Part shown: positions 1,443-63,842 of the stretch, piece by piece
Layout: each line of letters begins with the position of its first letter
How positions within the stretch are numbered: position 1 is the stretch's first letter
Origin: Naegleria gruberi
Taxonomy: Eukaryota
NCBI GenBank assembly: GCA_000004985.1
Contig: GG738874.1
Length of the DNA: 64,000 nt
Strand: one strand, 5' to 3'
Notes under the pieces: model-generated
The model's input: the letters and a program-made list of their open reading frames with translations, nothing else
The model's database searches: none
Told to the model about the DNA's origin: nothing
Translations under genes and position numbers: made by a program

Positions 1443-4400
1443 TTAAAGAATGAAAGAAATAAACAATAAGGCAATAGCCAAGATTAAATTGAAAAGAGGA
1501 GTAGTTAAAGGAGAGTTGTTAATTCTTGCTGATTGTTGGGGAATGGTGATTGAACTGGATACTGAAATCAGTTTTTCACAATTGGTTCCAATGAAACCAA
1601 TTGAACATTTGCATGTATCTGTTGAAATGCATTGACCATTTCCTGAACAAACATTTGAAGTATCATTTGACAATTTTCCATAACATTGAATGAGTTTACA
1701 TTCAGGCCCATACCAATCCTTATCACATTTGCACAAGTTAAAATCCATACATTGCCCATGTCCAGAACAAACATTTGGCGTGTCATTTGACAATTTTCCA
1801 AAACATTGAATGAGTTCACAATCAGGGCCATACCAATCCTTATTGCATTGACATGTATCTGTTGAAATACATTGACCATGTCCAGAACAAACATTTGAGG
1901 TATCTGACAATTTTCCAAAACATTGAATAAGTTTACAATCAGGGCCATACCAATCCTTATTGCATTGACATGTATCTGTTGAAATACATTGCCCATTTCC
2001 TGAACAAACATTTGACGTATCATTTGACAATTTTCCAAAACATTGAAATAGCTTACAATCAGGCCCATACCAATCCTTATCACATTTACACAAGTTAAAA
2101 TCCATACATTGCCCATGTCCAGAACAACCCGATGAATTAGAGATACCAAAGCAGATAGGAGTATTGCATGAAGAACCAACCCAAGTCGAATTACATTCAC
2201 ACAAATCTTTTCCGATACATTGACCATGAGAATTGCAAGTGAGTGGATCATTACTTTGAATTCCAAAACAAGAGAAGTATTCACAATTGGCTCCACTAAA
2301 ACCATTATCACAAGTACACTTTTCATAATCTAAACATTTACCCCTCGATTGACAAACAGCAGAATCATTACTTAACAAACCATTACATGTGGTAATGTTG
2401 CAAGTTTCTCCAATCCAACCAATTTCACATTCACACAAATTGACATCAACACAAGCACCTTGGGATGGTCCACCACAAGAATTATTACCAAACTTTCCAT
2501 AACAGATTGGTGTGCATATTAAGGAATTTTCACTCAGACGAAAACCATCTTCTTCACAGTATGGAACTGCCACCCTAACCAAGCCATTACGAAAGATACC
2601 AGTATCTGAATATATTAAATTTCCTTGTTCATCAATGAAGATAGAGTCTGGGCATGAAACAATAGTTTCATTTCCTTTCACATTGTCTCTCATCTCAAAA
2701 CCTGTCTGTCCATTACCAATAATTGTTGAGATATTTCCATCCAATGCTGAAATCTTTCTTATAGCATGGGCATCACAATCAGGAAAAATTACATCACCAA
2801 CTTTGGTTGTAATAACAGATGCAGGATTAATAATAGATGCCAAAAGAGCAGAACCACCATCTCCAGTTGATAGCACAATTCCATTTCCTGTAACAGCATG
2901 AATGATACCGTCTTTGCTTATTCTTCTAATTCTGTTATTTCCTATATCAGTGAAATAAATATCTCCATCCACACTCACTGTAATACCATATGGATTATTG
3001 AGTTTTGCCTTAATTGCCTCAATTTCATCATTGTTATAACCAGCATATATACCACCAGCAATAGTAGAAATAATTCCTGTATCATAAGAAATCTTTCTAA
3101 TATTATTAGCATAACAAGAATCTGTAAAATAAATGTCACCTCTCCATGATACTACCAATCTGTTTGGACATAAATAGGCTTCAGATGCCAATCCACCATC
3201 GCCCAAACCACCAGCTAGAGTACTAATAATTCCATTGGTAGATACTGTTCTGATATAAGCTCTGTCAATTATATATAAATCTCCATTTGGTCCAACCTTT
3301 GAGAATGATGGAACTACACTAGTCATGTTGGCAAGAACATCATTTTCGATATCAGTAGTATTTCCGTTTCCAGCAATAGTTGAAATAACACCATTAGAAA
3401 TCTTTCTTAATCTAGAATTATCTGAAATGTAAATGTCACCATTTTGATCTACTGAAACACTTGTTGGCTTATTGAGTTGTGCATCAGTTGCAAGAATATC
3501 ATCTCCATTGTAACCTTCAACTCCAGTACCACAAATAATTGAATTTTGTAAAGTGGAAAGTGTAATATTGTTCAAAGTGGAATCTGATAGTAATACTAAA
3601 AGATACAATCCATCATTTGTAAGTGCAACATCTAAAGGAGATGCTACATTTTGTACAATGTCAATTATGCCACTTGTCAAATTAACAACTCTAATTGCAT
3701 TATTACCATTACAAGCAACATATAACAATTCTTCATCAGAAGAGAAAGCCATACCATTAGGATTTGAAATTGCTGCCTCGATAGCATTACCTCCATCTCC
3801 ACTATAATCATCAACCCCAGTTCCACAAATTGTTGTGATATTTCCATTGAGTGATATCTTTTGAACTCGATGAGTATTTGTGGAAAAGTAAATTTCACCC
3901 ATCTTGCTAACAAGAACTCTAACTGGATTACCTATCATTGAATCAATAGCTCTTACGTTTTCTCCACTGTATCCTGCAACACCAGGTTTACCAGCAATGG
4001 TTGTTATAATTCCCAAAGTTGAAATCTTTCTAATACATGAGTTTAAACTGTCAGCAATAATCATTTCACTAGTGCTTGGTAAAAAGTCAATTCCAGTTGC
4101 TCTACTGATAACTGAATATTTGGCATTGTATCCATCACCTCCAAATTGACCATTGGTTCCAGCAACTCTTATCAATGTGCCATTCCAAAATAGTTTGTAA
4201 ATTGAATTACTGAATGAAACAAATAACTCTTTTGTAATTGGTGAAACGGAAAGTCCAATAATGCTCTGGATTGATTCGAGCGGATTAATAACGTTAGGGA
4301 CAATAGTAGAGTCATCTAGACGGTTACCGTTACCTGCAATAGTTGAAACAATTTGATTCTTGTCAACCTTTCTAATTCTGCAATCATGTGAAATATATGT

Positions 4401-5618
4401 AATGCCATCAATTGAAACAACTTGACTAATATAGCCCAAAGCTGCTTTTGATGCTGGCAACCCATCTCCTCCATATACATTTGTATTACCAATTACTGTT
4501 TCAATAATTCCAGTTTGTTTTGAAATTTTACGTATCTTCAAATTTCCAGTGTCAGTAACATAAACATCTCCATTTTTAGAAACTGAGATTCCTGTTGGAT
4601 AAGCAAATTTGGCATTGATTGCGGGACCACCATCACCATAATTACCACTATCCATACTTCCACCAATTGTAGAAATGTAACCGCTGCTATTGACCATTCT
4701 AATAACGTTATTATTATCAATAATGTATAATGTACCATCAGGAGTGGAAACGACACCAGTTGGAAAATTCAATGCTGCATTGGTTGCCAAGCCTCCATCA
4801 CCAGAGTATCCTACATCTCCATTACCTGCGATTGTTGAAATAATTGCAGTGCTGCCATCAATCTTTCTAATTCTATGATTAAGTGAATCACAAAAGTAAA
4901 TGTCACCATTAGTGGAATTGACAAATAATCCTGTTGGTGTGTTTATCCTGGCAGTGAGTGCTGGTCTATTATCACCTCCAAAATTATTGATACCATTACC
5001 ACAGATTGTTACAACTGCACCATTTGAGATCTTTCTAATTCTGTGATTATTCCTATCAGCAAAGATTACATCAGAATTTATCAAACCAATACCAAAAGGA
5101 CGTGAAACTTTTGATAACTTAGCTTGTCCATCATTAAATCCTGAAGAACCAGGAATGCCAGCAATTACACTTATCTTTCCACTCTTCATGTCAATTTTTC
5201 TCACCAAATCATTGTAATAATCTGAAAAGTAAATATCACCAGTTTCTTTTGATACTACAATGCCTCTAGGTTCATTAATTTGAGCAAGCAGAGCCAATTG
5301 ATTTGCGCCACCATCACTATAACTACCTGGTAATTCACCTGTACCAGCAATCGCTTTTATCACATTACCAGATGTTGCTTTAATGGTATTAGCATCTGTG
5401 AAAACTAGTTCATCTTGTTCATTGAAGAATAATGCCAAGGGACTGTCGAGGGAAAGAGATGTCAAGTTATAACCATCACCCAGTAAGTTTCCACCTGCAA
5501 ATGTACTGGTTGTGTATTTCACAGGTTTCAAGTTGACCGTTGTCTTGCACAACACCATGTTGTTGGTTAACAACAACAATATTAAACAAACAAAGACATT
5601 GAACCAGAGTGCTGTCAT
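1443..5618 (-). CDS. secreted, probably GPI-anchored surface protein with about 16-18 NHL-type beta-propeller repeats followed by about 9 tenascin-type EGF repeats (1391 aa, intronless)
   Basis: ATG at 5618. N-terminal signal peptide MTALWFNVFVCLILLLLTNNMVLC. Repeated ...GNG..GYSGDGG.A..A.LN.P.G...d..G.lYiaD..N..IRki blades (NHL/YD-like). C-terminal Cys-rich units C.G....d...C.G.G.C.....C.C...W.G..C...C (EGF). Ser-rich stalk plus terminal hydrophobic tail LFNLILAIALLFISFIL immediately before the stop, typical of a GPI signal. Confidence 0.8.
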   Translation of the reverse strand: MTALWFNVFVCLILLLLTNNMVLCKTTVNLKPVKYTTSTFAGGNLLGDGYNLTSLSLDSPLALFFNEQDELVFTDANTIKATSGNVIKAIAGTGELPGSYSDGGANQLALLAQINEPRGIVVSKETGDIYFSDYYNDLVRKIDMKSGKISVIAGIPGSSGFNDGQAKLSKVSRPFGIGLINSDVIFADRNNHRIRKISNGAVVTICGNGINNFGGDNRPALTARINTPTGLFVNSTNGDIYFCDSLNHRIRKIDGSTAIISTIAGNGDVGYSGDGGLATNAALNFPTGVVSTPDGTLYIIDNNNVIRMVNSSGYISTIGGSMDSGNYGDGGPAINAKFAYPTGISVSKNGDVYVTDTGNLKIRKISKQTGIIETVIGNTNVYGGDGLPASKAALGYISQVVSIDGITYISHDCRIRKVDKNQIVSTIAGNGNRLDDSTIVPNVINPLESIQSIIGLSVSPITKELFVSFSNSIYKLFWNGTLIRVAGTNGQFGGDGYNAKYSVISRATGIDFLPSTSEMIIADSLNSCIRKISTLGIITTIAGKPGVAGYSGENVRAIDSMIGNPVRVLVSKMGEIYFSTNTHRVQKISLNGNITTICGTGVDDYSGDGGNAIEAAISNPNGMAFSSDEELLYVACNGNNAIRVVNLTSGIIDIVQNVASPLDVALTNDGLYLLVLLSDSTLNNITLSTLQNSIICGTGVEGYNGDDILATDAQLNKPTSVSVDQNGDIYISDNSRLRKISNGVISTIAGNGNTTDIENDVLANMTSVVPSFSKVGPNGDLYIIDRAYIRTVSTNGIISTLAGGLGDGGLASEAYLCPNRLVVSWRGDIYFTDSCYANNIRKISYDTGIISTIAGGIYAGYNNDEIEAIKAKLNNPYGITVSVDGDIYFTDIGNNRIRRISKDGIIHAVTGNGIVLSTGDGGSALLASIINPASVITTKVGDVIFPDCDAHAIRKISALDGNISTIIGNGQTGFEMRDNVKGNETIVSCPDSIFIDEQGNLIYSDTGIFRNGLVRVAVPYCEEDGFRLSENSLICTPICYGKFGNNSCGGPSQGACVDVNLCECEIGWIGETCNITTCNGLLSNDSAVCQSRGKCLDYEKCTCDNGFSGANCEYFSCFGIQSNDPLTCNSHGQCIGKDLCECNSTWVGSSCNTPICFGISNSSGCSGHGQCMDFNLCKCDKDWYGPDCKLFQCFGKLSNDTSNVCSGNGQCISTDTCQCNKDWYGPDCKLIQCFGKLSDTSNVCSGHGQCISTDTCQCNKDWYGPDCELIQCFGKLSNDTPNVCSGHGQCMDFNLCKCDKDWYGPECKLIQCYGKLSNDTSNVCSGNGQCISTDTCKCSIGFIGTNCEKLISVSSSITIPQQSARINNSPLTTPLFNLILAIALLFISFIL
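1650..2160 (-). repeat. coding tandem repeat: 5-6 near-identical 123-bp (41-aa) EGF units inside the NHL/EGF gene
   Basis: The DNA unit ...ccaatccttatcacatttgcacaagttaaaatccatacattgcccatgtccagaacaaacatttg...caattttccaaaacattgaa... recurs head-to-tail with roughly 90% or higher nucleotide identity. It encodes CFGKLSNDTSNVCSG(N/H)GQCISTDTCQCNKDWYGPDCKLIQ. One copy lacks one codon (KLSDTSNV). Confidence 0.85.
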
Positions 5619-5846
5619 TTTTTTGTTTAGTGAATTTGTCTTTTCGGCTCTTTAGTGCTTGACATTAATACGAAATACTCAACTTTCGGTTTTACGGTGA
5701 ACTCTGTTTATGCGACCAATGAGAAACATTGTAAAGTGAGATTTGGCATCGTTTTATCCCAATTAAATCAACACTTTAGTAAGTGAATCTGCTAATGCTA
5801 CTGTAGAAGGACTTTGTATAAACTACTGTTCAAGAAAAATGTCATT

Positions 5847-7329: not shown

Positions 7330-7672
7330 TTTCCTCTTGGATTACCTTTTCATTTTTTTAAAATTATGAGAAAATATTTTGAAATAATTTTCATGGGTAG
7401 GTTTACACTCTTGAAGATTGAATTCACAACATAGTCAATTAAGATCTCCATTCTTCAAATTTTTCATATGAATTTGGAAGAATCCCAAAGTTGGAAATTG
7501 GTAAAAATTGTTGCGCACTTTTATTGCAATTAAAAACTTGCCTTGCACATTCTAATAATACGCACTCACCGCACCTCCTTAGAAAAAAATCATACGAGGT
7601 GAGAATATTTCAAATAAATAGTCTGTATGAAATATTCATCTCATTCTCCAATTCAAAACAAAACACAAAAAC

Positions 7673-8440
7673 ATGTCCTCAAACAATAATCAATCTAAAC
7701 TCGTCGTTATTACTGGAGCTAGCAGTGGAATTGGTGCTACAACTGCTGTCGAATTTGCTGCCAAAGGTTACAAACTTTTATTGTTGGCCAGAAGATTGGA
7801 CAGATTAGAGCAATTGGTAAAAGATTCAAGCAATAGTTTGTCATTTGAAAATACTGTTATTCATCAATGTGATATCATTCAAGTTGACCAAATTAAGGAA
7901 GGTATTGAAAAGGCCAAAAAGCAATTCAACATTTCTTCTGTTGATTGTTTAATTAACAATGCAGGTGTCATGTTGTTGCAACCACTCCTCACTCAACCAT
8001 TATCCGATCAAAATCAAATGTTTGACACAAATGTAAAAGGTCTCTTGAATGCATCACACGCTGTCCTCAAGGAAATGGTTGAAAACAAACAAGGCACCAT
8101 TATCAACATTAGTAGCATTGCGGGAACTAAATCTTTCCCTTCAGCAGCTGCCTACTGTGGTACCAAACATGCTGTTCATGCAATTTCTGAAACTTTGAGA
8201 AGTGAAGTTGCTGGTTCAAAAGTTAGAGTTGTGATTGTTTCTCCTGGCTTTACAGAGAGTGAATTGTTAGGTCACAATGAAAAGGAAAACTCAGAAGGAT
8301 TTGAAGCAATGGTCAACTCATGGGAGATGGGAGCTCTCAAATCCAAAGATATTGCTGATGCCATTCTTTATGCCTATGAAGCACCAAAGCATGTTTGCGT
8401 AAGAGAAATTAAATTAGCCCCAACAGAACAAACTGTTTAA
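7673..8440 (+). CDS. short-chain dehydrogenase/reductase (SDR) family oxidoreductase, 255 aa
   Basis: N-terminal Rossmann motif VITGASSGIGATTA, an NNAG motif and the catalytic YCGTKHAV (YxxxK). Single exon from ATG 7673 to TAA 8440. Confidence 0.85.
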   Translation: MSSNNNQSKLVVITGASSGIGATTAVEFAAKGYKLLLLARRLDRLEQLVKDSSNSLSFENTVIHQCDIIQVDQIKEGIEKAKKQFNISSVDCLINNAGVMLLQPLLTQPLSDQNQMFDTNVKGLLNASHAVLKEMVENKQGTIINISSIAGTKSFPSAAAYCGTKHAVHAISETLRSEVAGSKVRVVIVSPGFTESELLGHNEKENSEGFEAMVNSWEMGALKSKDIADAILYAYEAPKHVCVREIKLAPTEQTV

Positions 8441-15901: not shown

Positions 15902-17199
15902 ATGCCCAATAATCAGCAGTTTAGAGCAATTCCTTCATCTTCATCACGAGCACTCGACATTTCTTCATCTACAGATCAAATACTTAACGGAGATTCGAAT
16001 AACAAGTTTCCAACAAGAGATTGTACCTCCTCAAACAGTACATCCACAACAACTGAAGATTATTCAGGGGAAGATGGTGCTGACTATCAATATGAAGATG
16101 GAGCTCTTCAAGAAGAAACAGAAGAAACTAATGGAGACGAAACTTATTCTAATCTTGATTTGAATACTGTCAAGTTATTTGTTGGACAAATTCCATACTC
16201 TTATGGTGAAGATAATTTATATCCATTATTTTCACAATTTGGTCCAGTTGCTGAAATTGTTGTGATTAGAGACAGATTTACATTCAAGTCAAGAGGATGT
16301 GCTTTCGTCTCATTTCGTAGTAAGCAAGATGCGGACACATGCATTAGAGAACTCAATCAAAGATTGAAACTGCCACCTGTAAGTATATTTGATATGTGAT
16401 AATTTTAACTTATTCGAATGGTTTCAATTGAACACCTTTTTTATTCGAAACTTAGTTAAATACCCCTCTCAGAGTTAAATATGCCTACACTGAGCAACAA
16501 TTAGATATTGTTAATGATAATTTTGTAAATAATGCTCCAAATCTAACTACTTCATCCTCGCCTAATGATTCCAATAGTGAAAAATCTCAAGATTTGACAA
16601 TTGCCTCAAATTTCCTCTCCTGTCTCAATATAGATAAGTATGAAATTGGCGTGCCTCATCCAGAAAACAAGCTCTTTATCAGAAATATTCCAAAGAATGT
16701 TACTGAAGATGAGCTCTCAACTCTATTCGAAAGTTTTGGCGAAATTCTTGACGTTGTCGTATTGAGAACGACCATTCATACTTCAAAGGGATGTGGTTTT
16801 ATCAAATTTACCAATTCAGAATCAGCTGATATGGTCATTAACACCTTCAAGAGAGAAATCATTTCACCAATTCAAGAATATCAACAAGGAGCTCAACAAG
16901 AAGGAACAACTATTGGTGGACCTTCTAATCAAAGATTGGTCGAGTTGACTAACAAGCTCCTAGAGAGTAGTTTCCTTATGAAGGGAGCTATCACTCCTCT
17001 ATTGGTTAGATATGCTGATAAGGATTATGTACCAAGTCAATCAACACAAGATGAACATGTCTATAATTCAACAACTACTGGTGGTCATGATTATCACTCT
17101 ACAAATGGAAATCATGGAGGTCATTACAATCCAAGAAGAAGGAAATCTTATCCATTGTCTTATCATAATAATAATAATAATAGAAGAGGATCCTATCAT
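15902..17199 (+). CDS. RNA-binding protein with at least 2 RRM domains (CELF/Bruno-like), 3'-truncated by the assembly gap; exon 1 15902..16378, intron 16379..16455, exon 2 16456 to the gap
   Basis: RRM1 is LFVGQIPYSYGEDNLYPLFSQFGPVAEIVVIRDRFTFKSRGCAFVSF (RNP2/RNP1). RRM2 is KLFIRNIPKNVTEDELSTLFESFGEILDVVVLRTTIHTSKGCGFIKF. PLRVKYAYTEQQ and PLLVRYADKD linkers resemble the ELAV/CELF 'VKFAD' motifs. The reading frame runs into the N run at 17200. Confidence 0.7.
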
Positions 17200-17991
17200 N
17201 NNNNNNNNNNNNNNNNNNNNNNNNNNNNNNNNNNNNNNNNNNNNNNNNNNNNNNNNNNNNNNNNNNNNNNNNNNNNNNNNNNNNNNNNNNNNNNNNNNNN
17301 NNNNNNNNNNNNNNNNNNNNNNNNNNNNNNNNNNNNNNNNNNNNNNNNNNNNNNNNNNNNNNNNNNNNNNNNNNNNNNNNNNNNNNNNNNNNNNNNNNNN
17401 NNNNNNNNNNNNNNNNNNNNNNNNNNNNNNNNNNNNNNNNNNNNNNNNNNNNNNNNNNNNNNNNNNNNNNNNNNNNNNNNNNNNNNNNNNNNNNNNNNNN
17501 NNNNNNNNNNNNNNNNNNNNNNNNNNNNNNNNNNNNNNNNNNNNNNNNNNNNNNNNNNNNNNNNNNNNNNNNNNNNNNNNNNNNNNNNNNNNNNNNNNNN
17601 NNNNNNNNNNNNNNNNNNNNNNNNNNNNNNNNNNNNNNNNNNNNNNNNNNNNNNNNNNNNNNNNNNNNNNNNNNNNNNNNNNNNNNNNNNNNNNNNNNNN
17701 NNNNNNNNNNNNNNNNNNNNNNNNNNNNNNNNNNNNNNNNNNNNNNNNNNNNNNNNNNNNNNNNNNNNNNNNNNNNNNNNNNNNNNNNNNNNNNNNNNNN
17801 NNNNNNNNNNNNNNNNNNNNNNNNNNNNNNNNNNNNNNNNNNNNNNNNNNNNNNNNNNNNNNNNNNNNNNNNNNNNNNNNNNNNNNNNNNNNNNNNNNNN
17901 NNNNNNNNNNNNNNNNNNNNNNNNNNNNNNNNNNNNNNNNNNNNNNNNNNNNNNNNNNNNNNNNNNNNNNNNNNNNNNNNNNNNNNNNNNN
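17200..17991. other. assembly gap (792 N); it truncates the 3' ends of two convergent genes
   Basis: Uninterrupted run of n characters from 17200 to 17991. Confidence 1.
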
Positions 17992-18464
17992 ATTTCATTT
18001 TCCGATTTCTTCTTGTATACCTTTGATGGAAGACCAATGACAGTTTCCTTTTCCTTATTCCACACTCTGAATTTGCTAAATACTTCTGGATTGCACAAAT
18101 CAGGCATTTGAAGCCCAATTCCTGATGTATATAATGCTCGCAGTGATTCCTTTTGCAATCTCAAGTTTGGTGTAAGTTTTGGATGTTTTTTATCAAATTC
18201 TTTATCGGAATGTTCCAAATATTTATCAATCAATTCAATCATTTCCTCCTCAGTACAACAAGTTTTCTTTACTCTAATATCTGCACCGAAAATTTGTTCG
18301 TGAATATAAAGATATCTCTTGAATGTTGGCACAACTTTAGTATCTCTGATTTGTTTTTGTTCCTTCTTTTTAAAGTCGTGAATACCCTGCTTCTTCATAT
18401 CGATAGCCTTTCGGGATTTTGGATGAACTGGTTTGGTGGTTGTGGCGTTTGCTCCTTTGGTCAT
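17992..18464 (-). CDS. TMA16: TMA16 (translation machinery-associated protein 16) homolog. The N-terminal ~158 aa are present; the C-terminus is lost in the gap
   Basis: ATG at 18464 gives MTKGANATTTKPVHPKSRKAIDMKKQGIHDFKKKEQKQI...CTEEEMIELIDKYLEHSDKEFDKK...GIGLQMPDLCNPEVFSKFRVWNKEKETVIGLPSK. This matches the TMA16 pattern (HP.SRKA...ELIERYL...G.GL.IPD..N...K.FREW) recalled from memory. The ORF runs into the gap. Confidence 0.55.
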
Positions 18465-18728: not shown

Positions 18729-19405
18729 ATGTCAGGACAATCTGCTCTCCGTCTCGCAAAGGAATTGAAAGAATTGCAAAAGAATCCAGTCGAAGGTTTC
18801 AGTGCTGGTTTGAAAGAGGACTCAAATATGTATGAATGGGATATTTTAATTGGTAGGTGTTGTTTGGAGTAGAATTATTAGAATTTTTTCATCATTGTTA
18901 TTTGAATTTATTTAATATTATTAATTGTTGCGATTGATGATTTTATTATTTTACATAATAATAATACAATAACAACATCAGTCGGACCACCTGAAACACT
19001 CTATGAAGGAGGAATGGTAAGCTTCAAGATCTTTGTATATTTATTTAAATGTTTCTTTATAGTTCCGTGCTATTATGACCTTCCCAGAAGACTATCCAAA
19101 CAGTCCACCAAAGTTGCAATTCACTACTCCAATTTGGCATCCAAACATTTATTCAGATGGTAAAGTTTGTATTTCTATTCTCCATCCACCAGGTGAAGAC
19201 GTACGGATACGAAAAGGCCAGTGAACGTTGGTTGCCAATTCACTCTGTTGAATCTATTTTAATTTCAGTTATTTCCATGTTGTCTGTTCCAAATGATGAA
19301 TCACCTGCCAATTTGGATGCTGCTAAACAATGGAGAGAAGACAAGGAAGGATACAAGAAGAAAGTCAAGAGACTTGTTAATGACTCTATTGAAAACTTTT
19401 ATTAA
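18729..19405 (+). CDS. UBC7: ubiquitin-conjugating enzyme E2 of the UBC7/UBE2G type; 3 exons (18729..18852, 18982..19016, 19063..19405) with an apparent +1 frameshift at about 19201-19206
   Basis: Exon 1 [41 protein letters not shown]; exon 2 [12 protein letters not shown]; exon 3 [47 protein letters not shown]. The frame must then shift by 1 nt to continue [52 protein letters not shown]...ENFY* (UBC7 consensus HPPGDDP.GYE...ERW.P..SVE.IL.SV.SML.EPNDES.AN.DA). The active-site Cys in HPNIY..G.VCISIL is intact. Confidence 0.75.
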
Positions 19406-27723: not shown

Positions 27724-28008
27724 TTTTTTTTATTGTTCGAATCAAAATAAATGTCACTTTGATTTTCACATTAAGAACTCTTCAAAATGTGTGATTATAA
27801 TAGGTTGTTTCTGAATAGGATTTGCATTCCTTCTTTAGAATCATCATTCTTTTACAAAAAAACTGTAAATGCCAAATAACCACTGAATGTACTGTAATAT
27901 AACAACTTTGGTACTGAGTAGCCCAGTGGTCGAATGTTCAATTCCTTCCTAACCACATCCTAATTTTTATCACCGCCAAAATGACTTCGAATAAACACTG
28001 GAAAAAAA

Positions 28009-31000
28009 ATGGTTCAATGTGATTGTGGAGAGGAGGCTGCAAGTTTGATTGTTCGGAAAGAAGGACCAAACAAGGGACGTTCTTTTCATTCATGTGCTTC
28101 GAGAAGTTGTCAGTTTTTCAAGTGGGGTTCTGCAGAAAGTCAGCAACAGCAACAACCTTCATCATCAATCGGAAGAGTTTCATCTGCAAGTAATAATAAT
28201 AATAACAATGGAAAATCAACAACAATTAATAGGAATAATACAAGTAATCATACTCGTAATACAAACAGTATTGATGGCGATAATGATGATGATTTTGCAA
28301 CAGTGGATTTTTCTGCACCACCTTCTAGGAGAATTGTTGTCTCTAATAATTCATCAGCCAACAAAACAACAACAACAAATACAACAACAACCTCCAAATC
28401 AACCAATAATAGGCAAGCAGGGACATCATCCTCAACAAGTACTAATTCTTCATCACAAAAATCAAGTCGAGTAGATGATGTTTCGAGTGATGGGAAAACC
28501 ATTCCGAAATGTAAACATGGATTGGATACAATTCTGTTAAAGGTGAAGAAAGAAGGACCAAACCAAGGAAAGTTGTTTTGGTCTTGTACTGAGAAGGAAG
28601 ACTCTTGTCAATTCTTTGAATGGTTGAAAGGAAACGAAAATGATTATCTTCATCTATTGAATGTAAATCCAAACAAGAAGAAGAAGACAAAAGAATCCAG
28701 TAGTGATGAAGGTAGTAGCTCATCTGGCTCTGGAGAAAAGAAAAAATCATCCAACCATATTGAATTTGAAATTTGTACATTAGAGGTAAATGGTGACCAT
28801 GAATTGACAGTGAGAGAATTTGAAGATGATAATGCTCCAAACTCAGAAGGAATTACAGAAGATTATTCAAGGATGATGCAAAATTCTCTCGCTCTTAGAG
28901 TGTTAGTCTCTAAACGAATTGCTTCAAAAGTTGCTGAAGCTTTGAATGAATTCAATTGTTTGAATAAGCTTAAGGAAACAGAAAATGAAGACTCTGAGGA
29001 CGAAAAAAAGAAAGTTGATCTCTATTTTGAATATAAGAACTATTCAGCTATTTTGAAAAAAATCAAAAAACATGAACTTGCCTCCAAATGTAATATTGTG
29101 GAACTTCCTGATTTTGTTATTCGATTGTTAAAGAATTACTCTGAATTGACAGATAAGAATAGCAATATTGACCCTTGGAAACGTATTCCAAAACAATTAC
29201 AAAACTCATTCCTTCCCTTCCAAAAAATTGGTGTCGAGTTTGGAATTAAAAAAGAAGGCCGTGTTTTGATATCAGATGAAATGGGTCTTGGTAAAACCAT
29301 TCAATGCATTGCCATTGCTACACATTTCTCAAATGATTGGCCATTGTGGATTGTATGTCCAGGATCTTTAAAAGCTAATTGGAAAAAGGAAATTTTAAAG
29401 TGGATGGGAGGGCAAACTGTTAAAGTGGATGGTTCTGATGAATTTATAACTTCCATGCAAATTAATGTCATTGACAATAGCAGTCAAGTCAATAAGGGGT
29501 TTTCCCTTATCAATATTATTTCCTATGATTTGTTAGCGAAGGACAATATTATTTCATTGGTTGAAAAGGAATTTGAAAAGAAAAAGAAAGGTGTCATGGT
29601 TTGTGATGAGTCTCACTTGTTAAAGAGTTTATCTAGCAAGAGATCACAATCATTGGTACCACTTTTAGAGCAAGCTACTAGAACTATCCTTGCAAGTGGT
29701 ACAAGTTGCATGTCGAGACCAATTGAGCTTTTTTCTCAAATTAAGGCCATCATTGGAAAGAACAGTATCAAGAAGCTTGAATTTGGCTATAGATATTGTG
29801 GTCTTACTCAAAAACCAAAATATGACTCGGATTACAAAGGATCTAGTAGATTATCTGAGCTATATTGCCTACTTTCCAATACAATAATGATAAGAAGATT
29901 GAAAAGAGATGTTTTAACAGAGTTACCACCTAAAAGGAGGTCCAAGTACTATTTACATGTAAAGGAAGAAGATCTCAAACAAATTAATGGCATTGGAGGT
30001 GATTCTAAGAAAAAGTTCTACCAAAAAGATTGGGGTAAACTCCAGAAAGATAAGGATGTTATTGCTAAATATGTGAAAACTGCTGAGGCTAAAATAGATG
30101 GAATCAGGTCTTACCTCAGAAAAATTATTCCCAAGAAGGAGAAGTTTCTCATATTTGCTCACCATAGGCGTGTGATGGATGCAATAGAAGAAACTGTGAA
30201 ACAAGAGCTGTCATATTTAACAAAATATAGTCACTCAAGTGTTAGTGATGATATTCTGGAGGAGGATATTTTCACTACTAAGGGCTCTACACATGACGAC
30301 ATTGAGGAATTTGAGGATGATGATGTAAAAACTTACGAGTATATTAGAATAGATGGCGAGACAAAGGACAGAGAGGGATTAGCTCATCACTTCAGATCAA
30401 CTGAGAATTGTCTCGTTGCCATCCTATCTATGAATGTAGCAGGTTGTGGTCTTAACTTTGTGCCATGCTCTACTGTTGTATTTGCAGAACTGTGTTGGAA
30501 TCCAGCCTTACTCAATCAATGTGAAGATCGTTGTCACAGAATTGGACAAAAAGGAGCTTTTGTGGATATCACGTACTTATTGGCAAAGAAAACCTTGGAC
30601 GATTTCATGTGGGATTTATTAACCAAGAAGGCTGACATTACAGACCTTGCATTAAATGGTCAAAAAGAAGAGAAGTCATCTCACTTAACAAGAAGTGTGC
30701 AGGACATTACAACACCCAAAAAGAAGTCACTCTCCTTGGGGGGTAGTAGCTCAATAGAAAAGTATTTGAAACCCTCACCAACCACTTCAACAACCACAGT
30801 TACTGAATCCACAAGTTCATCACCTCCTAAGCTAGACGATTCTGTCATTATGTTAGATGATGACGATGATGATATTTCACTTAATTCAAATACAATCCAT
30901 TCCAAAAAGACAGATTCAAAAGAAGACAAATCATCATCCAGTAAGAAACGATCTTCCTCAACCATAACACCTCCTAACAATACCAAGAAGAAGCTTCTCT

Positions 31001-31047
31001 TCCCTACACAAAAGAACACCCTCTTCTCCTATTGTACAAAGAAGTAA
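28009..31047 (+). CDS. SNF2-family ATPase/helicase with two N-terminal GRF-type zinc fingers (1012 aa, intronless); SMARCAL1/ZRANB3-like subfamily is tentative
   Basis: GRF fingers CDCGEEAASLIVRKEGPNKGRSFHSCASRSCQFFKW and CKHGLDTILLKVKKEGPNQGKLFWSCTEKEDSCQFFEW. SNF2 motif I LISDEMGLGKTIQ, DESH box VCDESHLLKS, helicase-C motif VI ...QCEDRCHRIGQKGAFVDI. Long Asn/Thr/Ser low-complexity N-terminal stretches. Confidence 0.85.
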   Translation: MVQCDCGEEAASLIVRKEGPNKGRSFHSCASRSCQFFKWGSAESQQQQQPSSSIGRVSSASNNNNNNGKSTTINRNNTSNHTRNTNSIDGDNDDDFATVDFSAPPSRRIVVSNNSSANKTTTTNTTTTSKSTNNRQAGTSSSTSTNSSSQKSSRVDDVSSDGKTIPKCKHGLDTILLKVKKEGPNQGKLFWSCTEKEDSCQFFEWLKGNENDYLHLLNVNPNKKKKTKESSSDEGSSSSGSGEKKKSSNHIEFEICTLEVNGDHELTVREFEDDNAPNSEGITEDYSRMMQNSLALRVLVSKRIASKVAEALNEFNCLNKLKETENEDSEDEKKKVDLYFEYKNYSAILKKIKKHELASKCNIVELPDFVIRLLKNYSELTDKNSNIDPWKRIPKQLQNSFLPFQKIGVEFGIKKEGRVLISDEMGLGKTIQCIAIATHFSNDWPLWIVCPGSLKANWKKEILKWMGGQTVKVDGSDEFITSMQINVIDNSSQVNKGFSLINIISYDLLAKDNIISLVEKEFEKKKKGVMVCDESHLLKSLSSKRSQSLVPLLEQATRTILASGTSCMSRPIELFSQIKAIIGKNSIKKLEFGYRYCGLTQKPKYDSDYKGSSRLSELYCLLSNTIMIRRLKRDVLTELPPKRRSKYYLHVKEEDLKQINGIGGDSKKKFYQKDWGKLQKDKDVIAKYVKTAEAKIDGIRSYLRKIIPKKEKFLIFAHHRRVMDAIEETVKQELSYLTKYSHSSVSDDILEEDIFTTKGSTHDDIEEFEDDDVKTYEYIRIDGETKDREGLAHHFRSTENCLVAILSMNVAGCGLNFVPCSTVVFAELCWNPALLNQCEDRCHRIGQKGAFVDITYLLAKKTLDDFMWDLLTKKADITDLALNGQKEEKSSHLTRSVQDITTPKKKSLSLGGSSSIEKYLKPSPTTSTTTVTESTSSSPPKLDDSVIMLDDDDDDISLNSNTIHSKKTDSKEDKSSSSKKRSSSTITPPNNTKKKLLFPTQKNTLFSYCTKK

Positions 31048-34637: not shown

Positions 34638-37600
34638 TTACATTTGGTGGTTGTGAATAAACTCTTCCATGGATCTTTGATTTTCATCTCTTTGTGGAGC
34701 TTTGAGTTTGATAATCTTAACAAACTCTGGATCCTTATCGACAATGGAAACATCTTGTGGAGTAATGATAATGAGCTGTCTTGTTGGATGTTTGGCTTTA
34801 GCTGTTTTCAAAATCAAATCCATGGCAGTCTTTCTGTACATATTATCCATGAACACATCAAATTCGTCTACAGCTCTAAATGGAGTTTCAACAAGTTCCC
34901 AAATTGAAAGTAAAAAGCTCACAGTTGTGAAAGATTTTTCTCCACCAGACAAAGACTTGGCATCTTTAACAGTTACATGACTACCATGAGTAGCCATATG
35001 AATAATAAATTTAAGGTCTCCATCCTCAACTTCTATTTGCCCAGAGTGACCCTTTTGACTCATGTAACGACCAAAGAATTGAGATACAGTAGAAATAGCA
35101 GAGGATCTAATTGCCAGCATGGTTCTAGTTCTGGAATTAACACCCTCTTTGGCCATTTTAAGGGCATCACGGCAAACCTCTAAGTGTAGTTTCTTTTCGT
35201 CATATGTGCGTTTATAGTCAAGATAATCTTTCTTGACATCTGAAGCATTGATATTTCCAAGTCTTTGTTGTTCTCTATCTATCAACTTTTTAATTGCATC
35301 AATTCTATTTCCCAGTACTCTAGGATCTGCATTGGTTTCTATATATGGACAACCATCTGAAGCAGTATCATGACTTCGATCCATCAACTCCTTGCTTAAG
35401 GTCACTTCTCTTTCCTTCTTTTCTAGTTCTTGCCTGTAACTGAAAATCTCATTATCCATTGTACGACTATTACGATTCTCATCTTCAATTTGTTTCAAGA
35501 TGTTAAGTACCTCTCTATCACGGGTTTCTTTTTCTTGTTGTGCCTCCATAACACTTTGTCTGCTTTCTGCTGCTTGTTGGTTGAGTTCATTCAATTCAAT
35601 CTTTAAATCCTCCATTTTCTTCTCTTCCTCTTTAAGTCTTTCTCTATTAGAGGCAATCTTGTCTTGGCAAATTTTAATTTTACCCTCAAGCTCTTCAATA
35701 AACTGTTGATCGTTGTCTTCCTCATTTGCTATTTCATCGATATCCTTCTTTTTCTTGTTTATAACTACTTTCAGTGAATCGATTTTTTTTGAGGAAGTTT
35801 TAATGCTATCAGTCAACTTGGAAAGACTTTCATATAGCCTATCTGCTTCAGAACGGAGTCTTTTCTCTGTCACCTCTACTTCTTTAACCTTTTTTCTGAG
35901 TTCTTCGGCAGCTTTCACTCTTGCTTGAATTTCTTCTTCCACACTCTTAGTCCATAATTTACTTCTTGGAGCATTAGCAACATCTGTCACAGCACTTCCA
36001 CCTTTTCTAAAAACTCTTGTACCTGTAATGGTAATAGCCTCATATTGTGGGTATTGATCTATAAATGATTGTGCTTCTTTAAGATTTTGAATGAGCACAT
36101 TTCTTTCAACTCTAGACTGGTTAATAAGCATATTAATTAATGTTGATCTGAGAACCTCAGTATCATCATACTTCAAAGGAGTGCTCCTAAGTGCATTCAA
36201 ATCTACATCTAATGTATGATAAATAGTGGTATGACCGTGAGGGAGAACCTTACTTAAATCATAAACCGAGTTGGTATATTGCTGAATGATGTGCGTAAAT
36301 TTGACACCAGTTTTCTTCTTGATTCTGTTCAATTCTTCTCCGTCTTTGAAATTATCAACAATAAATCCATTTAAATTTTTGATAAGAAATTGCTCAATTG
36401 CAGCGGCCCAATCTAAATACTCTTCTTTAACGCTTAAAAGCAATCCCAAAGGTCCTATTGGCGGCTTAGAAAAATTCTTGCTCTTGCTTAGTTCAGAAAG
36501 GAAATTTTTCATTTGTGCTCCTCCCACCATTGCAAATTTATCAGTTCTACTTTGCTTGAGTTTACTCTCTTCATCTTGTAATTTTCTAATATCTTCCTCT
36601 ATACTGCCTCTTTCATGTCTTGTCTGATTTTGTTGAGTAGTCAATTTCTCCCTGTTGACCTTAATGCCTGTGGCTTCTTCTTCGTATTGTTTCTTATTTT
36701 CTTCTATTTTGTCGATATCTGATTGAATTTTATCTATTTCCTCCTGTTTGCTCTTGATAGCTGACTCTTTATCAGTCTTATTCTTTGAAAGTGTTTCATT
36801 TTTGTTTCTGTCGAAAAGTTGAATTTCTTGTTCCAGAGCAGTTATTTCTCTATTGATTTTTTGTCTAGTTTGCTGAGAATTTTTTGCTCTAGTTTCAATA
36901 TCCCTTTTCTTGTTAAGCACATTGCTAGCCTCTTGGTTTAGCAGGTAAATTTTTTTGCCAATACTTTCAATCTCTTCATCAATTTGGAACTTCCTAGTTG
37001 TTAACTCTGAAATCCTAGTCCCTGAAGATGAGTTTTTCTTCTCAATTAGTTCATCTAAACTTCTTTTAAGTGCATCTCTCAATTTGACCTCACCTTCATA
37101 CTGAACCCTGTTTTTATGGTAGATAGCCCAACCCCTTTCAGATTGTAAAGCAGTCATATCATTTCTAAGCTCATCTATCCTTGTTGTTTCTTTGTAAAGG
37201 TCTTCTCTTTTTTTTAATTCTTCTGTTGATTCTTGAAAAGCGCTTATTTTATCAGCATACATATCTTCCATAATCTTATTGTTCTTGTTTGCTTGAGCAA
37301 TATTTTCCTCCATATCTTTAATTTGAGTCGCACGCAGGAAAAATTGATATTTCTTGGCCTCAGAAGATCCGGCCAAAAATTCTCTACTGATATCTTGAGT
37401 CATGCAGGTGGTAGGATTTTCTATTTGAATATTGAAAGAGTGTAAAATGATTGCCAATTCCTTGCTAGATTTTGAAATGGTCTTTCCTTGACTATTTTGA
37501 ATTTTGAGAGTAGTGCTACCTGCCTTGGAAATACCCTTTACAATAATAATGGATCTTCCATATAGTTCTTTCTTGTATGCATCTCTTCCTTGATTTCTGA

Positions 37601-38003
37601 GTCTAATCATAATTTCAGCATGTTCTTTTCCTGACATGACTAGATCCTTAATGGAATTACCTCTGTTAGTATTCTTAGCCTTCGATCCAAGCCCAACTTG
37701 GATTGCTGTAAGAACAGCACTTTTACCACTACCGTTCTCACCGTGAATAATAGTTGTTCTGTCATGAAATTCCACTTTAAAGTTAGGGTGACACATAAAG
37801 TTCTTCAATTTAATTTCTTCAATAATACCTGCTTCAAGGTTTTTTCCATCTTCTGCATCAAAAGCAGTTTTATCTTTCCTTTTCTTACTTTTTTGTGTTA
37901 ATTTTGGTGCTTCTTCCTCATCCGATTCCTCTATTTGTGTATTTGGTATTTCCTCCTCTTCATCAGATTCAATTTCTTGTTGTCTTTTTCTCTTGCTTGT
38001 CAT
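34638..38003 (-). CDS. SMC6: SMC6 (structural maintenance of chromosomes protein 6), 1121 aa, intronless
   Basis: ATG 38003. Walker A IIHGENGSGKSAVLTAIQVGLG near the N-terminus, long coiled coils with a central hinge, and C-terminal signature/Walker B LSGGEKSFTTVSFLLSIWELVETPFRAVDEFDVFMD. N-terminal acidic/KRK-rich tail. Confidence 0.9.
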   Translation of the reverse strand: MTSKRKRQQEIESDEEEEIPNTQIEESDEEEAPKLTQKSKKRKDKTAFDAEDGKNLEAGIIEEIKLKNFMCHPNFKVEFHDRTTIIHGENGSGKSAVLTAIQVGLGSKAKNTNRGNSIKDLVMSGKEHAEIMIRLRNQGRDAYKKELYGRSIIIVKGISKAGSTTLKIQNSQGKTISKSSKELAIILHSFNIQIENPTTCMTQDISREFLAGSSEAKKYQFFLRATQIKDMEENIAQANKNNKIMEDMYADKISAFQESTEELKKREDLYKETTRIDELRNDMTALQSERGWAIYHKNRVQYEGEVKLRDALKRSLDELIEKKNSSSGTRISELTTRKFQIDEEIESIGKKIYLLNQEASNVLNKKRDIETRAKNSQQTRQKINREITALEQEIQLFDRNKNETLSKNKTDKESAIKSKQEEIDKIQSDIDKIEENKKQYEEEATGIKVNREKLTTQQNQTRHERGSIEEDIRKLQDEESKLKQSRTDKFAMVGGAQMKNFLSELSKSKNFSKPPIGPLGLLLSVKEEYLDWAAAIEQFLIKNLNGFIVDNFKDGEELNRIKKKTGVKFTHIIQQYTNSVYDLSKVLPHGHTTIYHTLDVDLNALRSTPLKYDDTEVLRSTLINMLINQSRVERNVLIQNLKEAQSFIDQYPQYEAITITGTRVFRKGGSAVTDVANAPRSKLWTKSVEEEIQARVKAAEELRKKVKEVEVTEKRLRSEADRLYESLSKLTDSIKTSSKKIDSLKVVINKKKKDIDEIANEEDNDQQFIEELEGKIKICQDKIASNRERLKEEEKKMEDLKIELNELNQQAAESRQSVMEAQQEKETRDREVLNILKQIEDENRNSRTMDNEIFSYRQELEKKEREVTLSKELMDRSHDTASDGCPYIETNADPRVLGNRIDAIKKLIDREQQRLGNINASDVKKDYLDYKRTYDEKKLHLEVCRDALKMAKEGVNSRTRTMLAIRSSAISTVSQFFGRYMSQKGHSGQIEVEDGDLKFIIHMATHGSHVTVKDAKSLSGGEKSFTTVSFLLSIWELVETPFRAVDEFDVFMDNMYRKTAMDLILKTAKAKHPTRQLIIITPQDVSIVDKDPEFVKIIKLKAPQRDENQRSMEEFIHNHQM

Positions 38004-39257
38004 TTTACTATGTACAAATAAATAAATAAATTAATGATGATATTCCGTAAAGTGATAATTGTAGTAGAAAGTTTAATCAACTTTAATAGGCTTTTGATGT
38101 CCTCTATGATGTGATGTTGTCTCCACACAATTAACGTATTTTTTTTGTTCTTCCTCCTGCTGGATTTGTGCAACGAAGAAAACGAATAGATTTGTTTTTT
38201 TGTTTTGGCGCCAATCACATTTTTATGTCTATCCATTAACTCTTATCTAACATAACTTTTTAATCTCACTATACTAAGCACCTTGTAACAACAGGACAAT
38301 TTTAATAACCTTCAATACTTCCAAGTCCCTACCGATGCTATGTAAAGCAAAATAGTCGTGCTTCATCATCACTTCCTTCAAATCAGAGAAAAAAAAGCTT
38401 TGTGTGCATACCGTTCACTGTTTTTGTAAGCACCAAAGAAATTGATTAACAACCACAAAACCAACAACAATTAATATCATCGTCATCATAATAGTACAAT
38501 CTTATCTCGAATATATTAATATATTTATTATTACATAATAGTGGAGATGAGTAATAATCAAGCAGTTGTAGCTGGAGGTAAAAGAAATCAACAAGATGAA
38601 AAAACAAATGTAACAACAAATAATAATAATAATAGAAAGGAGAATGGTAAACAACATACTGATGATCATAGGAGTGATGATAACGCTTCATCTGAAAAAC
38701 ATTATATTGTTAAAAAAGGTGATTTTTCCTCCGATAGAACAATTTGTCATATGATGACTGAGAAGAAGTAGGTTTTAATCTAATTGAATTTAAATCTTGA
38801 ATATTTGTTTAGAAATAATGATAGAGTATTTTCAGTGATAGTAGAACAATCAGTTGTGTGTGGAATTATTGATCATACATATTCCGATCATAATAACGAG
38901 GTTAGTTTGACAAATATTCAATTCGAATATTCATTATTTGTTGAAGGTTATTGGATTGCTAGGTGGATTTTTCGATGAGAAGAGTTATGTTGTGTACATT
39001 AGTTGCTTCAAAGCTCTCAAGAGGGATATTGGAAATATTGCAATTGATGGTGTTGAATGTGATCCAAATGAGCTAATCAAAGCCCAAGAGTTTTTCCAAG
39101 AAAAGTAAGTTATTTACAATTTGTGAATTTCTAATTTAATGAAATTAATAGAGATTTGATTTTTTGTGGATGGTATCACTCTCAGTAAGTACAATATATT
39201 GACGACAATTTAATATTTAATATTATATAAAGTCCAAGGATACCACCTTTTCCATCT

Positions 39258-41583: not shown

Positions 41584-44500
41584 CTACTCTTTCTTGGATG
41601 AAGGAATGAAAACTTCCTTAGCTGGGGCTCTATTATTGTAATTGGACGACATACTGAATCCATAACTTCCTGCTGTACAAATGCAAAGAACATCACCTTC
41701 ACGTGTTTCACTAGATATTGGTCTATCATTACCAAAAACGTCACCACTTTCACAAATTGGTCCCACAATATCGGCAACCATTGTACTTTCAGCTGGATCA
41801 TCACTATCAGGATTGCTGATCTTGGACAAGTTGACAATTTCATGATGGGAATTGTACAAGGTTGGTCTGATGAGTGAGTTCATACCAGTTTCAATACCAA
41901 TAAATAATTTGAAATTCTTATTCTTAATTTGTGTAACACGAGCTAACAAGACACCAGCATTGGCTGTCAAAAATCTTCCAGGTTCCATACAGAGCTTGAC
42001 ATTTGTTGGATTATTATTTAACTTGAATTCGGTCATAGCTTTAGCAACTTCGCCCAAATCCAATTCAGTTTGCTTGTAAGGCACATAAGGAACACCAAGA
42101 CCACCTCCACAGTCAATTAATTTAACATCTTTAGCCAATTTTGGATATTCTGAAATGAGTTGAGTCAATGTAGTAGCAGTCTTCTTCCATGCTTCAGCTT
42201 CATCCAAAATACCACTTCCAACGTGAGCATGCAATCCCATAACTGTAATACTAAATTGTTCACACAATTCAATGGCTTGAGGAATGTCACTAATGTGAAT
42301 ACCAAACTTGGATTGAACACCACTTGTTTTAACCTTAGCATGGTGACCCTTACCTGCACCTGGATCAATTCTCAATAGAACAGACTTACCCCTCAGTAAT
42401 TCTGACCAATTCATGAGTGGATAAAGAGAATCAATGGTTAACATGACTCCCAATGAGATAGCTTCTCTATATTCCTTCTTTGGAGCAAAGTTTGGAGTGA
42501 ACAAGATTCTACTCTTATCAATATTAGGGAAGAGATTACAGACCATTCTCACTTCATCAATGGAGACACATTCCAAACCGAAACCGATACCTTCGAATAT
42601 CTTGAGAATTTCAACATTTGGATTGGACTTGATAGCAAAGAAAATGGTATCAACTGGTCCTCCACACTTAGTTGAAATATTGATGAGCTTTTGAGCATTG
42701 GCATAAAATTGATCAACATCATAAACATAGAGAGGTTGATCTTCAGCTTGCATCAATTCGAGAAGTTGATTTTGCTTGACACGCCACCAAACATGTTTAC
42801 CACTGACATCGTTAATCTTTTGTTTTTGAGTTTCGAAAAGTTCAGTCCAAGATGGTCCAATATATTGGGAATCAATGGCTTGCTTAATAAAGACCCAATC
42901 GTGTAATTCTTTCAATAATTGTTCATTGGAATTGTTTTGATCGAGCAAGAAAGTCAAATTGACATCAGAGGCAGCCAAGGCAACAGAATGAATCTTTTGT
43001 CCAGAGAAATACTTCAAACCAGATGAAAGACGAGGCAAGAATGATCTAATATTCTTACCAATCAATGACAAGGCAGCACATGGTCCAATAATTTCAACTC
43101 TGCAATTCATAGATCTTAAATCATTAACAAGCTTGTTCAAAATATCATTGTCCAACTTGGCTGTAGCATCAAAAGTGATGGTAATATTGGCCTCAGAGGT
43201 TGTAACAAAATCTACAGAAATATTATACTTTTTGAATTTGGAGAAAACATCGGCCAAGAAACCAACTTTTTGCCACATATCCAATGTATCAATAGATACC
43301 ATAAGAATGTCTCTTCTGATACAGATGCACTTGACGTGTGGTGTCTTTTCTTCATAGGTTAAACTTGTGACGTGTTCTTCTGATGACTTTTCTTCATCAT
43401 TTTCACTTTGAATGAGAGTAATATATTCCTTATCAATTTGCCCAGATTGGAAACGTTTCAAAAGCTTGACAGATCTAATTCTAATTTGAATATCGAATTC
43501 TTGTAAGAGCTTGAGACTTCTTGGTTGTAAAATCTTAAAGTTATCAGAGGTGGCAATTTCTAATGCTTCATGATAAGATAATTCCAAAACAAACTTGGCA
43601 TTTGTTGTTTTCATGTCAGAGGATGTGTAAATTCCACCAGTATTTGTCCAAAAGTCCACTGAACCAATATCAAGTTTAGTAGCATAAATTGCCACAGAGA
43701 GGTCAGAATTTGAACCTCCAACTCCAAAGAGAACAACATCACCCTTTCCATCACAACCCATATTTCCTTGAGTGATGAGAATGTCTGCTTCACTGGTTTT
43801 TAATTCTTCAATTAAATCAGTATCAACGAGTGGAGAATCATAATTGGCTCTCAAATATTGGTCTTGCTTTCTTTGCTCGTAAATGGTAAAGTTGACCTTA
43901 TCACTGTGGGTCACTTCTTCAACAGCCGTAGTTAAATACTTCTTGCTATCTAACAAGGCAGCTGAAAATGAATGATTAATTTCTTCAGATTGTAAGAATT
44001 CTAACAAGAAATTGCAAACCATTTCACTATAATATCCAATAATTTTAGCAATAACCTTTGGTGTAGATTCTGATAATAAATTAACTCCAATAAGGGATTG
44101 TTTCATCTTTGCTCTATATTCATTAAAAGTAACAGTTTCAAGAGCTGGATATTGCTTGTACAATTGACAGAGTGGTTCTAAAAATTCAGTCAAATATCTT
44201 TCAACAATACTTTCAGATTGAAGTGATTCAAATGAATCATCATCCTTCTTTTGTGATAATGATTGAATATATTTCAACATTTTAGTACCTTCATCTTCAT
44301 TCAATGTAGAAGGAGCAACAATAATAATCTTTGCATTTTCATCCAATTCATGTAAACGTTTCTTCTCCGATACAATTTGGGACAAGATAAAATTCAAACC
44401 CTTCTTTTTAGTTAATAAACCAGAATCAAACGTGCACAAGTAAAATTTAGAATGATGATGAGTTTTCATCAATGAAAGAGTGTTTGATAAAACGGAACCC

Positions 44501-44646: not shown

Positions 44647-45062
44647 TTTTTTTAATTTCAATTTTTATTTAAAAACGAAAATTATAATTGTTAATACCCA
44701 AATATTAGATGTGATGATATCCAAGATGAAGTAATGACCTGTTTAATATTATTATAATTTAATCATGGTGATGACCTATTCATCTCAGAAAGTGGCCCTA
44801 ACCTTTTTTGGATATCTATTACAGTGTAACATTACTATGGGGATATCAAGAGATGATTTTGGCGCCAAATTTCAAAGCTTTGAAAATATCAAGGCTTTGT
44901 TAATTTAAAGTTTAACTCAATAATAGCAAGTAAAGGGAAACAAACTTTGTGCAAAGTAAAAAAAACAAACACAACATCACTCTCCATCATTCTCCTGATT
45001 GAGTCAATTCAAACAAGCCTTTCAGCACAAGATACAACACAGCAATCGTTCTCATCATTAGC

Positions 45063-57616: not shown

Positions 57617-58011
57617 TACATCAGTAAGGAGCAATACTAATAGCAGTGTAATTATACAACAACAATTATACCTTACAAATTCGCATCAACCATTTTTGTG
57701 TTTAAAACAGTAGTTTTAATTTCAATTACGAAATGTATTTACTAAAAGGTGACATATGGATGACAGAATGCTGCAGAAATAATTCCACTACAATACTGAA
57801 TATTGGCGGGAGAAGTAAATCAAATCACATCAAACAAGAAATACTCTTCAGTCAACTCTTGTATTGCAGTGTATTCCTATAAATACAAAGCCAATTTTCT
57901 ACTAAAGTGAACTAAACAAAAAAAAGATACAACTCTTGTATTGTATATCTGTAAATTAATTGTAAACAACCTGTACATTCTAGGATTTTGTAAAATAATC
58001 TACTGTATTCA

Positions 58012-63792: not shown

Positions 63793-63842
63793 NNNNNNNN
63801 NNNNNNNNNNNNNNNNNNNNNNNNNNNNNNNNNNNNNNNNNN
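63793..63842. other. assembly gap (50 N)
   Basis: Run of n characters. Confidence 1.

Follow-up and report, generated by a model that had tools for sequence, protein, structure and literature searches.

The closest described relatives of the E2 considered here are human UBE2G1 (PDB 6D68, 2AWF) and S. pombe Ubc15, with which it shares the UBC fold, the HPN motif, the catalytic Cys and the acidic loop specific to UBE2G enzymes, HPPGEDxYGYExxxERW. UBE2G2 and yeast Ubc7 have the same features and are more distant. Three heterolobosean proteins, from Naegleria lovaniensis (C9374_013292, 170 aa), Naegleria fowleri (FDP41_013467, 170 aa) and Willaertia magna (ABK040_012888), can be assigned as its orthologues by similarity and synteny. 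Their genes agree with the N. gruberi gene in all catalytic motifs and in the positions of the first two introns but, unlike it, keep one continuous frame, in which codon 100 is GAA, and they contain an additional intron after ...ERWL that the N. gruberi gene lacks. Two other kinds of described system resemble the locus in their reading frames. In the known cases of programmed +1 frameshifting (Ty1, with CUU-AGG-C, Ty3, ABP140 and EST3; antizyme, with UCC-UGA; Euplotes, with AAA-UAA) two conserved halves of a protein are separated, as they are here, by a +1 offset. Frameshift-patching micro-introns, on the other hand, are common in automated gene models: in draft genomes, conserved coding sequence is cut out as very short GT-AG "introns" at an indel, and the resulting protein is shorter and lacks conserved residues.

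We analysed a stretch of 64,000 nucleotides from N. gruberi (contig GG738874.1 of assembly GCA_000004985.1), referred to below as the window, in which the E2 gene lies on the plus strand (Table 1). Once the frame is repaired, the gene encodes a protein of 167 aa in three exons (18729-18852, 18982-19016 and 19063-19405) that matches Pfam PF00179 (UQ_con) over positions 1-139 of 140 with 173 bits, the cut-off being 27. No single uninterrupted frame covers this domain, since frame A runs into its stop codon at 19222-19224, and the literal frame-A product reaches only positions 1-87 of 140. Start and stop codons, both pairs of splice sites and the family motifs are all intact. In the spliced frame, the HPN motif (H79-P80-N81) is encoded at 19138-19146, the TGT codon of the catalytic Cys89 lies at 19168-19170 and HPPGED at 19183-19200; the columns of H79-P80-N81 and C89 are invariant or nearly so in an alignment of ten sequences. 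The acidic loop in its UBE2G form, HxPGxDxxGYExxxERW, is found at 19183-19231, though split by the frame break.

Table 1. Positions in the window of the parts of the E2 gene, of the segments removed as introns in its public model and of the upstream gap
Feature	Positions	Strand	Remarks
Scaffold gap	17200-17991	.	792 N; 1,210 nt between its downstream end and the break; truncates the RRM-protein and Tma16 genes
E2 exon 1	18729-18852	+	ATG at 18729; ends DILI; same boundary in N. lovaniensis, N. fowleri and Willaertia
E2 intron 1	18853-18981	+	129 nt, GT...AG; position conserved in the orthologues
E2 exon 2	18982-19016	+	35 nt; same length in N. lovaniensis and N. fowleri
E2 intron 2	19017-19062	+	46 nt, GTAAGC...TATAG
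E2 exon 3, frame A part	19063-19200	+	HPN, Cys89, HPPGED; 100% identity to residues 54-99 of the repaired protein (tblastn)
Artefactual "intron" 1 of XP_002676022.1	19165-19192	+	28 nt, GT-AG; removes VCISILHPP, including the catalytic Cys
Orphan G	19201	+	codon remnant between GED and YGYE; two bases missing, GAA in relatives
Artefactual "intron" 2 of XP_002676022.1	19201-19221	+	21 nt, GT-AG; removes the stretch coding for YGYEKAS
E2 exon 3, frame B part	19202-19405	+	ends IENFY, then TAA stop at 19403-19405; 96% identical to N. lovaniensis and N. fowleri
Premature TGA in frame A	19222-19224	+	product of 106 aa

The frame break is confirmed as a property of the sequence, and the initial annotation had placed it correctly. 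The letters of the window across 19192-19206 are GAAGACGTACGG. Frame A is coding up to 19200 and then continues as GTA CGG ATA CGA AAA GGC CAG TGA, that is, VRIRKGQ followed by the early stop that had been noted seven codons on; frame B, which opens one G later at 19202 and thus has the +1 offset that had been described, runs for 67 codons before its TAA. When the repaired protein was compared with the window by tblastn, both halves were recovered at 100% identity in different frames. The high conservation claimed for the two halves was also borne out, each being 93-96% identical to the Naegleria orthologues. A break between two such halves is far beyond what chance would produce.

The initial annotation described the lesion as a single-nucleotide one, and here the comparison with relatives leads to a different result. 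At the site, where the window reads GAA GAC G TAC GGA, N. lovaniensis has GAA GAT GAA TGG GGT, N. fowleri has the same except for a synonymous GGC as the final codon, and Willaertia has GAA GAC GAA TAT GGA, so that every heterolobosean relative examined has Glu (GAA) as codon 100. Measured between the acceptor of intron 2 and the conserved ...TGG TTG, the exon is 172 nt long in the window and 174 nt long in the three relatives. Further, the loop between G-x-[D/E] and G-[Y/F/W]-E consists of two residues in all 178 of the motif-matching sequences among the 197 homologues retrieved, and it also has two residues in those non-matching homologues, fragments and variants at the G position, in which the region can still be seen. 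Since the orthologous DNA, the exon length and the loop length all indicate that two bases are missing and that no surplus base is present, the lesion is, on this comparative evidence, a deficit of two nucleotides in codon 100 and not an insertion of one. As to the codon that was lost, GTA, with one TA lost from GTATAC, is an equally simple alternative to GAA.

The proteins closest to the E2 are those of N. lovaniensis (95% identity), N. fowleri (93%) and W. magna (87%). Against solved structures, it scored 250.9 bits with S. pombe Ubc15 (5KNL) and 249.4 bits with human UBE2G1 (6D68), compared with about 202 bits for UBE2G2 and 178 bits for S. cerevisiae Ubc7 (2UCZ). Judged by these scores only, the E2 appears closest to the UBE2G1/S. 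pombe Ubc15 branch of the UBE2G family. The earlier label "UBC7-type" thus holds at the level of the family only, because the similarity to UBE2G2 and to yeast Ubc7 is weaker, and its nearest counterparts (near 250 bits) are UBE2G1 and Ubc15 rather than Ubc7. In all this, the gene is an unremarkable representative of a familiar enzyme family.

The order RRM protein, Tma16, E2, D-Glu cyclase is common to the window, N. lovaniensis and N. fowleri, while the Willaertia locus has only the upstream RRM gene in common with the window. The intron after ...ERWL measures 49-65 nt and has its boundaries at 10604/10668 in the N. lovaniensis locus (L001), 10640/10706 in that of N. fowleri (L002) and 10468/10518 in that of Willaertia (L003). 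In the window the corresponding positions, 19232-19237 (TGG TTG directly followed by CCA ATT), 36 nt downstream of the frame break, contain no intron; since all three relatives have it, we conclude that this intron was lost in N. gruberi. Willaertia has, in addition, an extra intron that splits exon 2.

The convergent downstream neighbour of the E2 gene is a relic of a D-Glu-cyclase gene (PF07286; 19401-20523, minus strand), the last piece of which overlaps the E2 stop codon. It contains in-frame stops at 19826-19824, 19669-19667 and 19645-19643, a change of frame between 19451 and 19445 and about 120 codons without counterpart between 19806 and 19687, at least 5 lesions in total. Both N. lovaniensis (L001, 10992-11923) and N. 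fowleri (L002, 11774-12961) have an intact gene at this place beside the E2, and the N. gruberi copy looks like a genuine old unitary pseudogene. On the upstream side, the gap of 792 N truncates the gene of the RRM protein (16088-17175, plus strand) and the 3' end of Tma16 (18009-18464, minus strand), and it is also the reason for an apparent dip in GC to 0.21 in 16001-18000.

Elsewhere in the window, a second run of N (63793-63842, 50 nt) marks another scaffold gap. A short-chain dehydrogenase/reductase gene (PF00106, E = 1e-51) occupies a single ORF at 7631-8437 on the plus strand, and five very long uninterrupted ORFs (1,020-1,471 aa) are located at 57994-62406 and 27985-31044 on the plus strand and at 41587-44664, 34641-38030 and 1446-5651 on the minus strand. 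ARAGORN found no tRNA gene in the 64 kb, and no Rfam family reached its gathering score there. A G-protein alpha subunit gene (PF00503; 46600-48272, plus strand) is split over two long ORFs. This was the only split domain among the ORFs of the suspicious junctions searched with Pfam (see below), and a frame error at its junction was rejected because the two ORFs are joined by a normal GT-AG intron of 61 nt (47647-47707).

The break is already present in the public record of the gene. The N. gruberi "predicted protein" XP_002676022.1 (EFC43278.1, UniProt D2VIJ3, NAEGRDRAFT_83191) has 150 aa and is near-identical to the protein of the window wherever the two align, with a hole of 17 residues. 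It was rebuilt exactly by joining 18729-18852, 18982-19016, 19063-19164, 19193-19200 and 19222-19405, that is, only with the two mini-introns of Table 1, and the break must therefore sit in the public assembly of N. gruberi NEG-M. Could this model be correct, with introns of 28 and 21 nt that are truly spliced and give a cysteine-less, UEV-like E2 of 150 aa? The segments do have GT...AG ends, the spliced ORF is open, and the protein still matches UQ_con with 156 bits. However, the residues they would remove, VCISILHPP and YGYEKAS, are among the most conserved of the family, and all of the 197 homologues retrieved contain the segment, except for fragments and obvious artefacts of modelling. In the 11 codons from TGT to GAC (19168-19200), a stretch that spans the first "intron" together with the mini-exon of 8 nt that follows, the gene differs from that of N. 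lovaniensis at six places, every one of them synonymous, and the real introns of the gene and its three orthologues range from 39 to 182 nt. We consider a genuine enzyme of this form hardly credible. The deletion of Cys89, the six synonymous differences and the size of the real introns show that the mini-introns are artefacts; XP_002676022.1 is in no respect different from the frameshift-patching models described above, of which it is a textbook case.

In principle, the sequence as it stands could also give a full-length E2 by programmed recoding, either through a +1 shift (e.g. at GUA-CGG-A) or through a shift of -2. The offset and the codon CGG, which is the second frame-A codon past the break and has a frequency of just 0.6 per 1000 codons in the long ORFs of the window, recall the known sites; rare A-site codons mark the frameshift sites of yeast Ty1, ABP140 and EST3. 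Against this, rare codons are what any out-of-frame reading produces, and the site GAC-GUA-CGG-AUA differs from the known ones in offering no slippery P-site codon able to re-pair, no stop codon and no homopolymer. Nor does the RNA of 19190-19290 form a stimulatory structure, its minimum free energy being -16.1 kcal/mol (z = +0.95), with 172 of 200 shuffled sequences folding as well. The orthologues do not share the shift, their frame being continuous at this site in N. lovaniensis, N. fowleri and Willaertia alike, and a +1 shift would leave a loop of one residue against the two found wherever the loop is readable among the 197 homologues. Programmed recoding is accordingly a very improbable reading, and so, in its lineage-specific form, is an event at GAC-GUA-CGG, be it a +1 shift stimulated by the rare CGG or a -2 shift giving ...GEDVYGYEK..., to which we would give scarcely any weight.

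Several other ways of reading through the break were considered and rejected. A tiny intron does not help, as removal of the 21-nt GT-AG segment keeps the reading in frame A and leads to TGA. Transcriptional slippage was ruled out by the lack of a homopolymer at the break. RNA editing was dismissed because the editing known from Heterolobosea, which is mitochondrial and of the substitution (C-to-U) type, would not restore the frame. An alternative genetic code fails on the many stops that frame A meets after 19222, and a paralogous copy does not exist in the window.

The selective history of the gene bears on whether the two bases are missing from the organism itself. We estimated dN/dS by the method of Nei and Gojobori. 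Against N. lovaniensis, for which dS was above 1 and saturated, it was 0.054 in the part upstream of the break and 0.037 in the part downstream; against N. fowleri, 0.062 and 0.014; and against the more distant Willaertia, about 0.11 on both sides. There is only about one N. gruberi-specific replacement at a variable position. The low dN/dS values indicate that strong purifying selection has acted on the half now out of frame during practically its whole history, and the lesion must therefore be extremely recent, if it is real at all. A gene in decay would show several lesions or a dN/dS near 1, and neither was seen: no second lesion was found in the E2 gene, and the downstream half remains strongly constrained.

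A very recent, real loss of function is thus one of the readings to be weighed. In this case the 2-nt deletion would be carried by one haplotype of a heterozygous strain, or would have become fixed in the long-cultured axenic NEG-M, and the gene, as a nascent pseudogene, would give a truncated protein of 106 aa or an mRNA that decays. Deletions of 2 nt are ordinary mutations, laboratory strains accumulate such lesions, and yeast can do without UBC7-family E2s. The D-Glu-cyclase relic beside the gene is a case of gene decay, and the clean state of the ORF junctions tested elsewhere in the window, described below, suggests that sequence quality is not generally poor. Moreover, Naegleria has been described as being, for the most part, a heterozygous diploid, and heterozygosity has been reported for N. 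gruberi (PMC9928731). On the other side, the lesion is single and accompanied by no other sign of relaxed constraint, the gene is kept under strong constraint in every relative examined, and the nearby scaffold gap makes a local error likelier. There is also no intact annotated second copy to compensate. The intact paralogous UBC7 whose presence elsewhere in the genome the initial annotation had proposed to check was not encountered, as no second annotated N. gruberi copy appeared among the best homology matches, where it would be expected first, and a tblastn search with the repaired protein found no second copy within the window. A real, homozygous lesion would consequently leave the strain without an annotated copy of a conserved enzyme. 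We regard a real deletion as possible but rather unlikely.

We also looked for independent sequence across the break. Among the versions looked up in a collection of 15 billion proteins, only the annotated XP_002676022.1 was present; no exact match was found to the frame-B ORF, to the product that ends early or to any of seven repaired forms, in which codon 100 was E, D, G, A, V or K or was left out. A homology search with the whole frame-B ORF retrieved no fragment derived from N. gruberi. In the JGI metagenomes there were 0 matches to the exact DNA pattern with a gap of 0-2 nt at the break, and a protein-guided scan gave no match closer than 79%. A literature search for the locus tag and accessions of the annotated protein found no mention.

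The reading that we favour, and hold to be fairly probable, is a base-level assembly or sequencing error at codon 100; we infer that the two bases are present in the DNA of the organism. The locus would then carry a functional, single N. gruberi orthologue of the UBE2G1/Ubc15-type E2, of 167 aa. In the 2010 Sanger draft of NEG-M, two bases of codon 100 would have been dropped from the consensus, turning an expected GAC-GAA-TAC into GAC-G-TAC and throwing the C-terminal 67 codons out of frame, and the automated model would have reopened the frame by inventing the GT-AG mini-introns of 28 and 21 nt, at the price of a protein of 150 aa without its Cys. The organism's DNA would read GACGNNTACGG, expected GACGAATACGG, at the break. 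Two features of the locus argue indirectly for such an error: there is one lesion only, in a gene that is otherwise strongly constrained, and the D-Glu-cyclase relic next to it, which seems to be a real pseudogene, is damaged many times over, while the E2 gene shows nothing alike.

The context, a Sanger draft with a gap of 792 N lying 1,210 nt upstream, is one in which errors are to be expected. Since this gap, 1.2 kb away, cuts into two neighbouring genes, coverage is poor at this end of the contig. For the NEG-M genome, which was assembled from Sanger sequence and measures 40.9 Mb, the scaffold-count row of Table 1 in a pangenome study gives 1,977, and it is the only N. gruberi genome that the study used (PMC9928731). 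Some observations point the other way. At 1.2 kb from the contig end, the break is beyond the reach of a single terminal read. We found no frame error in the RRM-protein and Tma16 genes by tblastn with the orthologous ORFs of the three syntenic loci, and none at other ORF junctions when ten ORFs of the most suspicious junctions, taken from 204 overlapping ORF pairs, were searched with Pfam; the junctions tested being clean, the window is not error-ridden, which speaks against an error. A clean loss of 2 nt outside a homopolymer is also not the commonest error of a Sanger consensus, in which 1-nt errors dominate. On balance, we arrive at the order already proposed in the initial annotation, with an error ahead of a young pseudogene and programmed frameshifting last.

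What the finding means depends on which of these readings is true. Indels of draft assemblies that micro-introns conceal are a familiar phenomenon, and the locus would be biologically new only if the deletion were real, which would be a minor novelty, or if it were bypassed by recoding, which is very unlikely. If the deletion is real, with GACGTACGG as the only sequence of the organism in case it is fixed, a laboratory strain carries a fresh null allele of a conserved and probably dispensable E2, a matter of minor interest. If recoding were true, it would have no reported precedent as a programmed frameshift in heterolobosean nuclear genes. The main value of the finding lies in curation, as XP_002676022.1, EFC43278.1 and D2VIJ3 describe an E2 of 150 aa that lacks its catalytic Cys, and surveys in which N. 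gruberi serves as the reference discoban could mis-score it as a dead, UEV-like E2 or as the loss of the UBE2G1 orthologue.
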